Assembly: GCA_010405405.1 (NCBI GenBank)
Contig: MU004243.1
Location: 181,340 to 245,339 of the forward strand
Direction of reading: 5' to 3'
DNA: 64,000 bases
Origin: Microthyrium microscopicum
Lineage: Eukaryota
Part shown: piece after piece, positions 6,877-54,821 of the stretch
How positions within the stretch are numbered: position 1 is the first letter of the stretch
How the letters are laid out: the number at the start of each line of letters is the position of its first letter
Program-made: the position numbers and the translations under genes
The notes under the pieces: generated by a model
Databases searched by the model: none
What the model saw: the letters and a program-made list of their open reading frames with translations, nothing else
What the model was told of the DNA's origin: nothing

Positions 6877-8172
6877 TTTTTGGCAGGTTAACTTCTTTAG
6901 GAAGGGATCAAACATACCGGAAAACTCCGAGGTAGCAGGATTTGAGCAGCTAACCCTCCCCAATCCCGTTATTGCGCACAGCTTGTTTGGCGTTTCGGCC
7001 ACCGACGCGGGCGCCGTCATCAAGCCCCATTTTCCCACAACCTGCTTTTGAGCTTTTGCTGTCCGACTTCCCATCAAAGCTCAGAACTGCACCACGAGAT
7101 CCACAGATGCAGTGTGCTTTCCTCGGGCCAAAACTCCTAGATGCTTGCTTTGCTAACTTCTAGTCCCGCGGCTCTTAGGAGAGGTGGTGAAATCATAGTA
7201 CAGCTAGGAATATCTGGAGGTTTCAAGGGTTTCAGCACTTTATGGAATCCCATAATAGTTTCCTCGGTAGTGATCATTTGATGTGTGATTTGACCAGACT
7301 GATATATGCTATTTCGACACCTATTCCTCTCAGGTAGTTGGTGGCATACACACCCATCTTGTTCGCCATCAAGAACAAGAACCTCATAATTTTACGCGCT
7401 TCAGTGTGCGTGAACTGAACAGACTAGTGTGCTATCTCTTGATCAAATAAACCAGGCCACCGGGTAATAACTAACCCAGCACTTTGAGACCATTCGTCAA
7501 TTATCCGTTCATGCCCGTATGATAGCTAGAAGGGGGGACAAAGCACTTGAGCCCCGCATTTCTCCTATCAGATTATCTGTCTGCATAACTCCCTTGGCCC
7601 AGGGCACCTTAGTCGTCTGATCTGGAGCTCGAGATTAATGCACGATAACTTTCGGAAGAACAATGCTTGCTCAATCCCACCCACGTTGTTCGGACCGTTG
7701 GCCCCACTCGCAGCTCTTTTTCCGGCCTTTTCAAATTGTGCTGTCGTTTTGGTAAGCTTTGTTATAAAGCCCCCATAAGGTCGTAGGGGAAAAGTAAAAG
7801 GTAGTCAGGCCGGTATCTCGCGTCCGTGGAGCTTGCTGGTGTACGTTCTAACGGGTTGATATTGCTCCATGTGGCCGTGGACGATGCAGGTTCAACCCCG
7901 CATTTCTTGGTGTCCCAGGGGTTTGTTTACGGCTCGCTTTAAAGAGTTGGATACAACCTCTCCTTGGCATTGATCATCTGCTGAGACTTGAGTGTTCGTC
8001 TTTTAAGAGCTATATGTACCTAGGTATACTTGGGTGATTCTTACCATAGACTCTGCCCAGCTTCCGGGTTTAAGAATGAGTGCTTTAGGGTGCTGGTATG
8101 CTTCAATGGCCCAGATATACTGCATGGAGTCCGTTTAGGCGTGGAGAGAAGATAAATATCGCCTTCGTCCAC

Positions 8173-48620: not shown

Positions 48621-49443
48621 ATACATACTATTAATTTACATTTATATTTACATTTAGCCATAGTCCACTCATGATTAAGACCAAAATAGCTTATACTAAA
48701 TATTAGTCAGTGGCCTTATGAAATCTAATATACTTTCTTAAGATCCTACCTTTCAACTAATTGCGATATTTAAATCTACAACATATAAATAAAACATGAA
48801 ATAAAATATTGGGACGCCGGTATAGAATCGCTTCATTCCACGAAACAGAGGCTTTCGATCCTTCAATGCGAGACTGAGCCTAGTACTCTAGAAGACATTG
48901 AGGTAATCTTGCCCAAAATTGAAATAATATGTCAACCTTTCCAGGATTACCACGAAATGGCAACCCCATGGGGATATGCGCACAGACCATCCAGAATTTT
49001 GATGTCACTTCACCTGTTGAACTCGACCCTGCTTCCTGATCCTCGACATCTCACTCTCTAGTCTCTTCGGTTCAATGCACACCTGGGTGCCTAGAATCCT
49101 CTAATATATGTCACCAACTGATCATACCACACCTAGAACCTCTTTGAGGCCTAGCTCTGACCGCCTCGCCTGGTCACTTTTGCCGCCTCTGTTCCTAGCA
49201 CTCCATATGCGACCAGATCGCTAAGAACAGGACATGTCCAGCCTCTATCACGCCTTTGCCTCATCTCGAGCTAGCCAGGGTACCCATATTCACTTGCTGC
49301 AACTTCTCAGGTCAGTTATCCCTCCCGAGCCTTACTCTTCAAGCTTATCTCTACTGTAGCGAAACTCGGGTACAATACCATATGCCCACCGGATAAATTT
49401 TGTGACTTGGCAAAATCCTTTGCTACCATCGGGGTAACTGATC

Positions 49444-50703
49444 ATGTCAGTCGAGATCCAATGGGAGACCTTGACTGGCGGGCCTGAAGGAGAAAAGCTG
49501 GCCGAGTCTATCCGACAATTCATCCACGACAGATTCCAGACTATTCCGCTTCCCCGGTTTATTCATTCTGTCAAAGTACTAGCGTTCAACTTTGGAGATC
49601 AGCCACCACAAATTGAAGTCAAGGATGTCTGTGACCCTCTGCCCGACTTTTACGAAGAAGACGATGATGATGCACGGAGTGCCCACAGCAATGCCAGCCA
49701 AACCACCGACGAACGAATCCGGGAGAAAGGCACTGCTCCCGCCTCAGGGGTCCCTGGCTCATCTGCAAATTCCCAGCAGCGTAATAGCAACTTCGAAGAC
49801 AACCTCAATGCGGCTGGAAATCTCCATCACAGAGGAGAAGTGCGACATGGCCACTCATTGTCAGCTCATATACCAGCTGCGCAACCATCTCAGCGACCAA
49901 TATCACTAACCCATCCCCTGGATATTACCCTTCCAAGCCCACGATTCTCATCTGGTATTCCAGGCGGCACTACCAATCTATCATACTTCCACCATCATCC
50001 ATATGGTAGTGCAGGCCCGACCACCCCCCTGGCCGCTATGGCCGGCGGGCATTTCACCATGCCCGACCGGCCTACCCATCAGCATTCCACCTCCATAAGT
50101 TCAAGCACTCCGCCCTCTTCAGCGGATCCACCATCCCGTCCGCCCTCGCAACACCAGTCACCAGCCAGTAATCGCTCATCTGCCGCTCCCACTGTCGACC
50201 TTTCCCACTTAGCGTCAGAGCGCGCAACTTCACCAGCACCACCGGAACGTAATCCTGACGACCTCCAAGTAGTTGCTCACGTGCGCTATCACGGGCCTAT
50301 GAGTCTAGTCGTCACGGCTGAAATACTGCTCGACTATCCAATGCCCAGCTTCGTTGGCATCCCATTAACGTTGCACATAACTGGCTTTTCATTTGACGGT
50401 GTAGCCATAGTGGCGTACATCAATCGCAAAGTGAGCTGCTGTTTTCTATCGCCGGAAGACGCCGTGACAGTGATAGGAGCAGGTGGAACGACGAGCGAAG
50501 ATGGTGGCGAGCAGGAAGAGCAGAGAGGCCCGCTAGGTGGGCTATTAGAAGAAGTGCGCGTGGAGAGTGAGATTGGGCTCAAGGATGGGGGCAAGCAAGT
50601 GTTGAAGAATGTGGGCAAGGTTGAAAAATTTGTCTTGGACCAAGTAAGACGCATTTTTGAGGACGAGTTTGTCTTTCCTAGCTTCTGGACATTTTTGGTC
50701 TAG
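49444..50703 (+). CDS. MDM12: ERMES complex subunit Mdm12 (SMP domain)
   Basis: MSVEIQWETL..IHDRFQTIPLPRFI, DVCDPLPDFYE, LDYPMPSFVGIP, VLKNVGKVEKFV and FVFPSFWTFLV. Confidence 0.95.
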   Translation: MSVEIQWETLTGGPEGEKLAESIRQFIHDRFQTIPLPRFIHSVKVLAFNFGDQPPQIEVKDVCDPLPDFYEEDDDDARSAHSNASQTTDERIREKGTAPASGVPGSSANSQQRNSNFEDNLNAAGNLHHRGEVRHGHSLSAHIPAAQPSQRPISLTHPLDITLPSPRFSSGIPGGTTNLSYFHHHPYGSAGPTTPLAAMAGGHFTMPDRPTHQHSTSISSSTPPSSADPPSRPPSQHQSPASNRSSAAPTVDLSHLASERATSPAPPERNPDDLQVVAHVRYHGPMSLVVTAEILLDYPMPSFVGIPLTLHITGFSFDGVAIVAYINRKVSCCFLSPEDAVTVIGAGGTTSEDGGEQEEQRGPLGGLLEEVRVESEIGLKDGGKQVLKNVGKVEKFVLDQVRRIFEDEFVFPSFWTFLV

Positions 50704-51082
50704 AATGTATGCATCAAAGGTTACTACTAAGTACCTCTTAGGACCTTTACTGGTGGAGAAGTTGAAGAATTATACCACCTCTTTGTACTTATGCACATAA
50801 ACCGGTGTACTTTTCACGAACTTTTGTCAAAACCAAACCTTCAAATAGATTTATCACATACATGTTCATTCTAGCTCCTATGAAATAAAGTATACTACGT
50901 GACCATGTAGATTTGCCCCACAGTATCATTTATCTAACCACTAAAAAATGAGAGCCACATTGTTTTAGCAGGAGGTGTTCCGTACCTGTAGCGCATATGG
51001 TCATATACCTACGACTATACTCCACATAACTCGTTCAAAAAAAAGCCTTTTCACATCATGATTCAGAAGCATACATGCAGCC

Positions 51083-51090
51083 AAAAAAAA
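51083..51090 (-). terminator. T8 run, putative Pol III terminator of the tRNA gene
   Basis: Eight Ts on the minus strand, 25 nt after the discriminator base. Confidence 0.6.
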
Positions 51091-51156
51091 CAGAAATGTC
51101 GAATTGACAGATTTTTGACTTGTGCAGGGATCGAACCTGCAATCTCTTGATTCGTA

Positions 51157-51212
51157 CTATGAAATAGTGTTAATAACTGCGTTATTTAAGAGAGTTTGAG
51201 GTGCTAAATTAC
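51157..51212 (-). other. 56-nt GT-AG spliceosomal-type intron in the tRNA anticodon loop (position 32/33)
   Basis: GTAATT...TATTAAC..TTTCATAG. Confidence 0.8.
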
Positions 51213-51240
51213 GTCAAGCGCCTTGCCATTGGGCCAACAA

Positions 51241-51293
51241 CAGAAAGGATGTCAGTAGCTGCGTATTAAACGGAGTTTGAAGTGTCAACTTAC
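51241..51293 (-). other. 53-nt spliceosomal-type intron in the tRNA acceptor stem (position 3/4), ending in TG
   Basis: GTAAGT...TACTGAC ATCCTTTCTG. The upstream GGC is required to complete the acceptor stem. Confidence 0.7.
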
Positions 51294-51388
51294 GCCATGC
51301 GAAAATTAATGATTTTACTCAAGTTGTGAGGGCTAATTTGCATAGTTTGTTATATAACTAACGGGTTTGCACTACATTTCTTTGTAGT

Positions 51389-51503
51389 TTTGCATAACTT
51401 TTCACGCTTCTGCACGATTCTTCACGAGTCTATATTGTTCTTCAACGACTTTGTATTGTTCTTCACAAGTTTGCATTATTCTTCACCGCTCTTTATTGTT
51501 CTC
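51389..51503. repeat. ~20-bp degenerate tandem repeat, about 5.7 units
   Basis: Units such as TCTGCACGATTCTTCACGAG, TTTGTATTGTTCTTCACAAG and TTTGCATTATTCTTCACCGC. Confidence 0.75.
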
Positions 51504-52997
51504 GATTAGCCGACCTGAACAGGAAATAAGCAACCTTGGGAAGGTATTGCTCTTATTACTAGTACTTAAGTAGAGTAGTAATTAGGATGGCAACTAACGT
51601 AACGATTCAAACTATCATCCTGCATATTAACTACCTAAGCAGCGCATTATGTTCATTTCGTCTAAAGAAACGCCGTAATGCTTCCAATACTCCAAAGCAT
51701 GGCATTGAACGGGTAGTTGTCGACCACAAGCACGTTAACATCTCTTATCTTTCTTCCACGATGAAAGCGACCTTCTTGCTTATATGGCTTTTAAATACGC
51801 CACTAAGCGCATATATCTGAGTCTTGGCTGTCACATTCATGGCTATCGGTACAAGTATTATATAAATATATCTTCTAACTGCTGCTCTAATTGAAATGAC
51901 ACAACGGCTAAAGCCGGATAAGTGGATATTGGATAACGGTTCCCCAGACTCACGTGAAGAGCGAAACGCGGGGCATCATCATATAATTGCTTTTTCCAAG
52001 CCTGTTTTGCGGGGCATTTTTAGACAATATGCAGTATCAAGGATGTTGATAACCCAGGTTGAAGTATTGCTGTTCTGGGTAGGTGATGCAATGTCAACAA
52101 TTGTGGTCCGATATTCAGCTCAGAAGTTGCAAGAAAGCCATTCCTTTCCTTGGTTCAAGAATGGATCGTCATTTGGCCAGATCTGGACTGCGAAATGGTC
52201 ACGATGTAAAAGCCACGCGGATGTCAACTTCCGTCTGGTACCGGTTGTGTTATTATCTCCATCTCATCATTTCTCCTGCCGCTGCTTACGAGCCGTGGAT
52301 CTTTTGAGCTCCATCCAAGTTGTATGCCATTCGGGAGCTAGTCGCAAGGTTCCTGAGCCATCCTTGATGGTAAATACTCTGAATACTCCAGAATTACTGG
52401 CTGGAGAGGACATACCCTTGCTGGACTCCGGTTCAACCCGCCAGATGCATTTGTTACCCTATGTTTCAAGGCAGGCGTGGCAGGTCAAGCTTCTGATCGT
52501 CATTCTTGGGTGATCGGGAACTACTTTCACGATAACTGCGGCTGCCGCGTTGCAAGGCCAAGTTGGCGTGGTCACGTCTTCATGGTACTTGCTCAGCGCG
52601 TATAAGTACAGCCACATTGCTGCCATCCGTAATCATTTCACTCTTGCCTATAAGATTTCGCCTTCCGCTGCCAGTTGTGTACTAGATCATCTATTCACCG
52701 ACACCTTCTCTTTGAAACACCAATTGCAATCAACCAATCTTTTCAGGTAGCCCACGTGTTCAGGCAGACCTATTGCTTTCGCCGATCCAGTAATCCAATC
52801 CACCTCACAGCAGCTTGCCGTGTCACCTAATCTGGTCATTCTTGGGACAGTGACTATTTGAGGTCCTTTCGCCCCGTCCAAGTTTTGTAAACTTATAAAC
52901 CACTCTTCCTATAAAAAGCATCATTCTCTGCTATCAAACTCGAATATCCACCCTCTACACCAAAACCGCAACTCTATCACTTTCTCAAATCAACAAC

Positions 52998-53309
52998 ATG
53001 TCTACTGCTCGTCGCGATTCCACCTTCTTGGTGCTTGCACCTGAATCATCCAGCGGATTTCCCAAGGAAGACTCTCGTTCATCTTCCATGTCTTCCACCG
53101 CTTCCAAGCCAATCTTGGACAACGTTGCCGTCGACGGTTCTGCTATCGACACTACCGCCCCAGCCGATCTAGTCGTCCCAGTCAAGGACCGTCGATCAAG
53201 CAGCGTCAGTAGCAATGGCTCTGCCCGTCGATTCCTCAAGCTTGGACCTGTTCACTTTGGAGGCGATCCAAAAGAATCCGACTGGGTCGAAGTTCCCGAT
53301 GAGAAATGA
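52998..53309 (+). CDS. Small Ser-rich hypothetical protein (103 aa)
   Basis: Good start context (CAACATGT), TATAAAA at 52910-52916, C-ending codon bias, and C-terminal RRFLKLGPVHFGG motif. Confidence 0.8.
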   Translation: MSTARRDSTFLVLAPESSSGFPKEDSRSSSMSSTASKPILDNVAVDGSAIDTTAPADLVVPVKDRRSSSVSSNGSARRFLKLGPVHFGGDPKESDWVEVPDEK

Positions 53310-54821
53310 TCATCTCGACACACGGCAAAGCAGCTGCGGCTAATTCGCTATCTTTTACGACGTTACGACACTTTAGCATTGGTCAGACACGGAAATTGAA
53401 GACCGGTCCAATCGGGCGCTTGGAATGGATTTAGAAATCATTATGCTGTGATCCAGATTCTTGGATATTCCATCTTTCTACGTATTACTCCAAATAGGAA
53501 TGAAAATGCTCGTCCTTGGCACTTATCTTGTGGTTGAAGAAACTGATGGACGTGATACAAATGATCTTATCTTCGTGGCACGAATAAGAAGTATTGAAGA
53601 TACTAGATTCCAGGGTCCTGTGAGATTGTGGCCTAAATGTCTGTGGACCAGGTTCATTGTCAACCGTGGGTGCTTCGATTGGTAAAGGTTGAATATGGTC
53701 GTGGGGGGAGTTGCAGATGAAGCAAAAGGCTAGCTGGTCTCCGCATTCCACAGCAGCATGCAGACAGCTGTGTTGCCACGCTAATATCAACCCTGGCGAC
53801 TTGTATCTTGCATTTAAATCTAAATGCAGCTACTGGGCGGGACCTCACATTGAAATATGCCGCACAGTATCAATCTGTCTAAGCGCTCTCCTTTCAAGAC
53901 GAAAGCCCTTCGTGACCATGAGGGGCATTCACGCGGTGTACGCCACTCGTATCATGCATTCCATTTTCTTGTCGGGTTAGATCTCGTGAGATGATGATGT
54001 GATGGTACTGTTGGGAGTTTAGCATCCAGATCTTTGCTGCATCATATTCCTGCATTGCTGCGGCTTGGACGGCAAGTCGCCGATAGGTCCAATCATCAAG
54101 GAGTTAGATTCATTGATCTACACTTCCAAGAAGTCCCAAGACGTTGCACATGCTCATTGTCCGACCGTTTTTCTTACCCGCCGAGCCGCCAATATCTGTT
54201 GATGTTGCATATCCAAGATTCCGTGGTCAAAATGGAAGTTTTGTGTGTCGATGATGCCATTCGCCAAGGTATATGAGCGGTACGAGAGGAAAGTCTTCGT
54301 AGGCACCGCAGTAACAATTACGGCCGGGTGAAAGATGCTTGAGTCGGACGCGACGAGAAGGATGAAGTTAGAGTTAAGAAAGCCAAGAACGAGGTTTCGG
54401 CTTGTTGTAGATTTGTGGAGAGATCCATGTGGCTGCTCGGCAACTCCCGAGATGGTCTTCCAGCTCCAATAATGAGTTTTGGAAGGCGCCCTCAAGCAAC
54501 TCCTTTTCTTGATCAATATACTATACTCGATTGTTGCAATTCAATTGCCAATTCGATGTTTGGTCTCTGTAGTAATATCAGGTGGATGCTTAGAAAGCAT
54601 CTCCAACCTCCAAACCTGGCAATTCCTAGTCAACTAATTTGCTAGCCTCCGTAGGACTACCATACCTAGGTAGGAGAGCTCCGAAGGGACACTACCCAGC
54701 ACGAACCCCAGCCATGTTTACAACCTCTTCCACAGAATCAATCATGATGCAAAACATTATCCTGTCTCAATAACATCCATCAACTTGTCATGCACGCATC
54801 AAACAGCCAAGAATCTGAGAA

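Follow-up and report, generated by a model that had tools for sequence, protein, structure and literature searches.

Introduction

Can a nuclear tRNA depend on the spliceosome for its maturation? A locus on the minus strand of the 64-kb stretch of DNA analysed here (hereafter, the window) raises this question, as three separated pieces at that locus spell out a tRNA-Arg(ACG), while the two inserts that part them resemble short mRNA introns. According to PMC12530127, textbooks treat spliceosomal and tRNA introns as separate, unrelated systems. Searches of the open full-text literature brought up no report of a spliceosomal intron in a tRNA gene, and the exact phrase "spliceosomal introns in tRNA" retrieves 0 papers in a full-text literature search, with subscription journals lying outside the coverage in both cases. 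A previous reading of the window, made from its letters alone, had claimed that the three pieces constitute one tRNA gene interrupted by two spliceosomal-type introns, and that standard tRNA scanners would overlook such a gene. Here, we ask which parts of this claim hold and which explanation of the locus survives best.

Results

Three minus-strand pieces join into an intact tRNA-Arg(ACG)

Upon joining, the minus-strand pieces 51296-51294, 51240-51213 and 51156-51116 give rise to a 72-nt tRNA-Arg(ACG). The putative exon 1 (51294..51296, minus strand) consists of GGC and would provide tRNA positions 1-3, pairing with positions 70-72. Exon 2 (51213..51240, minus strand; 28 nt, tRNA 4-32 in the ARAGORN cloverleaf) comprises the remaining acceptor 5′ strand, the D arm, the 5′ strand of the anticodon stem and C32. 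Exon 3 (51116..51156, minus strand; 41 nt, tRNA 33-73 in the same cloverleaf) comprises the anticodon ACG, the variable loop, the T arm, the acceptor 3′ strand and the discriminator A. ARAGORN calls the joined 72 nt as tRNA-Arg(acg) at its default threshold, which places the inserts at positions 3/4 and 32/33; when insert 1 alone is removed and introns are allowed, it returns Arg(acg) and recognises a 56-nt intron, placed at position 33. After joining, the stems consist entirely of standard or G-U pairs (20/20), and U8, A14, G18, G19, U33, the TTCGA loop and C61, which we take to be the invariant tRNA positions, are present as judged by eye.

On the unspliced locus, ARAGORN makes no tRNA call. 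Moreover, neither ARAGORN nor Rfam (at gathering scores) finds a tRNA in the raw window, and Rfam in E-value mode returns just two weak, unrelated matches over 50800-51700. The sequence-only reading was thus right about the coordinates and strand of the three pieces, about the positions of the two inserts and about the blindness of standard scanners to this gene; scanning spliced against unspliced sequence, a check that it had proposed, yields an ARAGORN call after removal of both inserts and nothing on the unspliced DNA.

Because two contiguous blocks hold 69 of the 72 nt, the tRNA is not a chance match. A chance origin is possible only for the 3-nt GGC piece, for which our own arithmetic gives about 1 in 16 for a pairing triplet with the boundary fixed. 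A contiguous 5′ acceptor strand is not found near the A box; positions 1-3 are encoded 53 nt ahead of position 4, and the bases that adjoin position 4 (CTG) mismatch tRNA 70-72. Among eight junction registers (k = 0-7), a pairable 5′ strand arises only at k = 0 and k = 3, and it is at k = 3 that the upstream copy described below sits.

The structure is in the DNA and is not an assembly artefact, since an independent assembly of reads from the same sample is identical over this stretch (0 differences), with one contig of X1 and one of X4 spanning it.

The inserts resemble mRNA introns, and one of them lacks a 3′ AG

Insert 1 (51241..51293, minus strand; 53 nt) begins with GTAAGT, carries TACTGAC and ends in CTG. 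Insert 2 (51157..51212, minus strand; 56 nt), located between tRNA 32 and 33, begins with GTAATT, carries TATTAAC and ends in CATAG. The first two bases of each insert are GT, as part of a GTRNGT-like hexamer, and both inserts have a CTRAC-like branch motif within the ~10-40 nt that precede the 3′ end. The branch A of TACTGAC is positioned 11 nt before the last base of insert 1; that of TATTAAC, a heptamer one base off the consensus, is positioned 13 nt before the last base of insert 2. A 3′ YAG is found at the end of insert 2, which closes with TAG, and not at the end of insert 1, from which the next AG downstream is inside the D arm. Among annotated fungal introns, all terminal pairs other than GT-AG, GC-AG and AT-AC sum to 0.257% (PMC7072748, Table 1). 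The CTG at the end of insert 1 might be explained by a single A-to-T change in an original CAG. Insert 2 has its own shortcomings, in that both of its signals look weak, with a T at +5 and TTAAC instead of CTRAC. The boundaries of both inserts cannot slide, as the flanking bases differ, and there is no target-site duplication at either.

With 53 and 56 nt, the inserts fall within the size range of candidate mRNA introns in the window (41-92 nt, n = 11), as had been claimed. These 11 introns were picked by regular expression, using a signal-based pattern between long open frames that required G at +5, so that the frequency of GTAATT is not derivable from them. An inference of introns from reading frames that made no use of signals, with 188 donors, gave no clear enrichment and was too noisy for 5′ site frequencies.

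The inserts are intron-shaped beyond chance. The proposed mRNA-intron anatomy stands as regards the GT starts, the branch motifs and the TAG of insert 2, while it breaks down at the CTG end of insert 1.

The upstream insert and its exon flank look like a copy of the downstream pair

The two inserts are homologous. Their global alignment scores 21, compared to a mean of -6.8 (sd 3.7, max 9) for shuffles (n = 2000), and a repeat search independently pairs them in two families, D2 (38 nt at 76%) and D3 (22 nt at 73%), at a spacing of 81-82. The homology extends beyond the inserts into their upstream flanks, beginning 8 nt ahead of each GT, with CGCATGGC before insert 1 and CGCTTGAC (tRNA 25-32) before insert 2. 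Local alignment, starting at 51301 versus 51220, and the repeat families D2 and D3 thus delineate two duplicated units on the minus strand, unit 1 (51243..51301) consisting of CGCATGGC and most of insert 1, and unit 2 (51161..51220) consisting of tRNA 25-32 and most of insert 2. Between them, there are 44 matches, 15 mismatches and 1 gap (44/59 aligned bases), corresponding to a JC distance of 0.31. In the flanks, 6 of 8 bases agree (P = 0.004); upon exclusion of the last three bases, which are constrained by the acceptor stem, 4 of 5 agree (P = 0.016). At the other end, the homology ceases at TTTC, a few bases short of each 3′ junction, and unit 1 ends two bases before tRNA position 4.

Read in this light, exon 1 and intron 1 are a diverged copy of tRNA 25-32 and intron 2, and hence do not amount to an independent second intron. 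The GGC exon, which makes up the last 3 nt of the tRNA-derived part of unit 1, is the end of the diverged copy of tRNA 25-32, and can serve as positions 1-3 only since GAC/GGC happens to pair with 70-72. The copy presumably reads as a 3-nt exon followed by a second intron because tRNA 30-32 (GAC, in the copy GGC) also pairs with 70-72. The earlier claim of two introns is therefore half sustained: there are two intron-shaped inserts, but they do not count as two independent introns, being paralogous including the 8-nt flank.

The flank homology points to a DNA-level duplication and not to a clean insertion of an intron; together with the tandem repeats found upstream (see below), it points to a local DNA duplication. 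A tandem duplication of an 81-nt block was rejected, as the 29 nt that precede unit 1 bear no resemblance to tRNA 1-24, with 1597 of 3000 shuffles scoring as well. Direct repeats around the whole unit, considered as a target duplication, were likewise discarded (score 7 vs a shuffle mean of 6.8). A search of the 64-kb window revealed no third copy of the insert.

In the alignment of the copies, splice signals are conserved no better than interior blocks. The branch heptamers differ at two sites; at the R position one purine replaces the other, and at the second site C has changed to T. A C-to-T change in the branch heptamer keeps wobble pairing with U2, and the differences inside the heptamers are of tolerated kinds.

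The surroundings of the locus

Just upstream of the tRNA locus, at window positions 51366-51502, there are degenerate tandem repeats, including a period-20 array with 4.2 copies (51418-51502) and 41-nt and 61-nt periodicities (families D1 and D4). These degenerate repeats show the intergenic stretch upstream of the tRNA to be prone to local duplication. A 20-nt inverted repeat (I1; 75% complementary, 51080-51099 and 51374-51393) brackets the tRNA locus; it is of low complexity and may be due to chance.

A single-exon MDM12 gene is located at 49444-50700 on the plus strand (Pfam PF26544 and PF10296). Among non-self proteins, the closest one reaches 56% identity, and the best named relatives are Dothideomycetes; the lineage is poorly sampled in the protein collection.

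Contigs of four sequencing runs were aligned to the window, with no joints reported. One of these runs, X5, is labelled RNA by guess and stems from another sample; its contigs, at 0 differences, cover 49400-50868 and 51671-53400 and lie over two flanking genes on the plus strand. The coverage stops at 50868, resumes weakly at 51671 and resumes strongly at 52013, positions that are plausible transcript ends of the neighbouring genes. X5 has no contig at the tRNA locus (none on 50874-51543), which says nothing about expression of the tRNA either way.

Internal promoter elements predict a transcription start inside insert 1

By the familiar motifs, the locus has the internal A and B boxes and the downstream T run of a tRNA gene: an A-box-like promoter element read from the sequence of tRNA 8-18 (51226..51236, minus strand), a B-box-like element matched by pattern in the T arm (51127..51137, minus strand) and eight consecutive T (51083..51090, minus strand), 25 nt beyond the 3′ end of the tRNA, which may serve as a Pol III terminator. 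As a rule, Pol III initiates some 10-20 nt ahead of the A box. A start directed by the A box would accordingly fall inside insert 1, and the transcript would omit the GGC piece. At 54-60 nt upstream of GGC, there is a TATATAA (51350..51356, minus strand) that may be an upstream promoter element. The predicted start inside insert 1, the CTG end of that insert and the paralogy of the inserts had all escaped the sequence-only reading.

A run of four T (51302-51305, minus strand) ends 6 nt before GGC and could weaken Pol III transcripts that start further upstream. Neither insert contains such a run; as a Pol III signature, this absence is not significant, given that TTTT is also missing from 72% of shuffles of insert 1 and 64% of shuffles of insert 2.

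Other B-box matches in the window, at 7889 and 56957, were dismissed, neither being a tRNA. In the region 7840-7900 (plus strand), the B-box-like match GGTTCAACCCC is found ~45 nt downstream of GTACGT and TCTAAC; no cloverleaf is discernible there by eye, and the match is probably inside a gene.

The exons appear constrained while the inserts have diverged

The exons are free of lesions, even with 15 of 59 aligned sites differing between the copies. When neutral drift of exons 2-3 was simulated at half the JC distance of 0.31, all 20 pairs were kept in 5 of 400 simulations, and 49 of 400 products were still called Arg(acg). Under this model, the outcome suggests that the exons were constrained while the inserts diverged. 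The reasoning does not hold if a paralogue that had already diverged was the source of the upstream copy, nor if the exons are being homogenised by further Arg-ACG genes. Intact exons, the register fit at k = 3 and the tolerated changes in the branch heptamers all agree with a gene whose exons are under selection and whose inserts are taken out of the RNA.

Searches beyond the window brought up no comparable locus in the collections covered. A metagenome pattern consisting of an A box, a GT intron and AG plus the anticodon gave 2 matches, both due to chance and devoid of a T arm, one of them in an apparent coding sequence. A pattern of AG plus the start of exon 3 gave 0 matches in genome (prokaryote) contigs and 0 in viral contigs, where fungi are not expected.

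Discussion

A tRNA gene with an intron at 32/33 and a copy of it upstream

Based on these results, we tentatively favour an explanation in which the insert at 32/33 is a true mRNA-type intron that depends, or once depended, on the spliceosome, exon 1 and intron 1 are a copy lying upstream of it, and the allele in its present form has probably been crippled. As part of this whole, and held with the same reserve, the locus would be a genuine tRNA-Arg(ACG) gene from the nuclear genome of a Dothideomycete-like ascomycete, with a 56-nt insert at 32/33 that resembles an mRNA-type intron. The explanation starts from what is observed at the locus, namely how it is built, that its inserts are paralogous, that a bulge-helix-bulge motif is missing (see below) and that the cloverleaf is intact.

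As to transcription, splicing and the order of events, we infer the following course. The spliceosome would remove, or would until recently have removed, the 32/33 insert from the tRNA precursor, as it does with fungal U6, which is likewise a Pol III transcript; end processing after splicing would then yield the tRNA. A ~60-nt copy of tRNA 25-32 and most of the intron would have been placed 81 nt upstream, and selection would have continued to act on the exons as the two copies of the intron diverged. The present allele probably yields little or no mature tRNA, because the upstream copy lacks a 3′ AG and the A-box-directed start would lie inside that copy.

Competing explanations

The rival that survives best, which we regard as somewhat less likely, is a pseudogene that was never spliced: an intron-like sequence would have entered a tRNA-Arg copy, whose 5′ end would then have been replaced through a local duplication, and the fit of GAC/GGC would be a coincidence. 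Such a history is consistent with the missing AG of insert 1, the weak signals of insert 2, the homology that reaches into the exon flank, a neighbourhood rich in tandem repeats and the lack of a call by the scanners. Eukaryotic tRNA genes with oddly placed inserts are, moreover, mostly regarded as pseudogenes in reviews, as stated in PMC4090602. However, a dead copy would not be expected to retain exons without a lesion in the face of 15/59 differing sites, when only 5/400 neutral simulations keep all pairs, nor to sit at one of the only 2 of 8 registers (k = 0 and k = 3) at which the acceptor stem can be restored. The exact start of both inserts at GT and the location of the branch motifs at intron-like distances likewise speak against it, and the entry of an intron-shaped sequence into the anticodon loop without a target duplication is left unaccounted for.

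It is doubtful that the locus is a fully working tRNA gene with two introns, in which transcription starts upstream of GGC, the spliceosome acts twice, using TG as the 3′ site of insert 1, and RNase P, RNase Z and CCA addition complete the product. The perfect cloverleaf that emerges once both inserts are removed, the fitting GGC piece and the apparent constraint on the exons would all be explained, as would the consensus 5′ site of insert 1 and the distance of 11 nt between its branch site and its end. The TATATAA upstream of GGC and the absence of runs of four T from the inserts can be counted in its favour, the latter with the reservation that most shuffles share it, and U6 offers a precedent of a Pol III transcript that is spliced by the spliceosome (PMC5855946). 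Against this explanation stands a GT..TG pair, which is very rare (according to PMC7072748). The A-box geometry puts the normal Pol III start inside insert 1, and the run of four T just before GGC could hamper transcription from further upstream. Similarly doubtful is a form of spliceosome dependence that takes in the paralogy of the inserts, in which a nuclear tRNA carries paralogous introns at 3/4 and 32/33, the second having arisen from the first by transposition or duplication within the gene.

We see only a slim chance, for the two taken together, that the inserts are endonuclease-type introns or that the 5′ end of the tRNA is repaired. Introns of the TSEN/BHB type that lie outside the canonical position, such as those of Cyanidioschyzon merolae, nucleomorphs or Thermoproteales archaea, are very improbable here. 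Both 3/4 and 32/33 are known archaeal intron sites, and Thermoproteales have similar introns at several positions (PMC4090602). However, no bulge-helix-bulge was found at either insert, the best central helix having 3/4 pairs over 16 registers each, and the fold of the 211-nt precursor is unremarkable, being no better than that of shuffles (z = -0.06). In addition, the eukaryotic enzyme employs a ruler mechanism that cuts at 37/38, away from 3/4 and 32/33, and the endonuclease pathway has no need of the spliceosomal signals seen in the inserts.

The least probable explanation, a Pol III start inside insert 1 that gives a transcript lacking positions 1-3, with splicing of insert 2 only and a 5′ end rebuilt by a 3′-5′ polymerase (Thg1-like repair), agrees with the A-box geometry and with a CTG before position 4 that mismatches 70-72, as in the substrates of amoeba and chytrid-mitochondrial 5′ tRNA editing, but leaves the fitting GGC piece a coincidence and calls for a nuclear Thg1-like 3′-5′ repair pathway, of which we know none in ascomycetes.

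Implications

If the inserts are spliced, the locus would have no precedent among tRNAs and would provide the first demonstrated case of a tRNA processed by the spliceosome. The separation between the spliceosomal and tRNA intron systems would then be broken, the range of U6-type cases would come to include the Pol III genes of the most abundant class, and tRNA scanners would under-count genes in some fungi. The locus would also be a natural record of the copying of introns into a structured Pol III RNA, and its diverged pair of paralogous inserts would afford a rare view of short-intron copying within one gene. If it is a dead copy, it would be a curiosity that shows the precise entry of an intron-shaped sequence into a tRNA gene.

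Comparison with known systems

The closest parallel is found in fungal small RNA genes. The U6 intron of S. pombe is removed by the spliceosome, and fungal U6 genes have up to four introns (PMC5855946). According to the same source, U1, U2, U5 and rRNA genes of fungi also carry mRNA-type introns, for which an origin by reverse splicing has been proposed. The present locus shares with U6 genes the short GT..branch..AG introns in a small, structured, Pol III-transcribed RNA gene, of which several per gene are possible (PMC5855946). [quoted passage not shown]

Like the tRNA introns of archaea, Cyanidioschyzon merolae and nucleomorphs, the inserts number at least two and occupy odd positions, among them 3/4, which is used in Thermoproteales (PMC4090602). 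Related archaeal intron sequences at different tRNA positions have led to the suggestion of transposition (PMC4090602). Those introns rely on BHB motifs and the splicing endonuclease (PMC4090602), whereas no BHB is present here and the signals are spliceosomal.

The introner-like behaviour of ILEs in Dothideomycetes invites a further comparison. ILEs are multiplying introns that can recur in one gene and degenerate fast (PMC4457414), and Dothideomycetes are also the class of the best named relatives of the neighbouring MDM12. In the account of PMC4457414, ILEs are longer than regular introns of 50-55 bp and exist as many near-identical copies in protein genes; the inserts, in contrast, measure 53 and 56 nt and are two copies ~75% alike, with no further copy within the 64-kb window. 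That paper contains 0 mentions of tRNA.

Finally, the locus resembles eukaryotic tRNA pseudogenes with insertions, as outlined in PMC4090602, in being one gene copy with inserts at non-canonical sites and without a scanner call. It differs from them in its exons, which are without lesion, and in its inserts, which have precise intron-like ends and signals.
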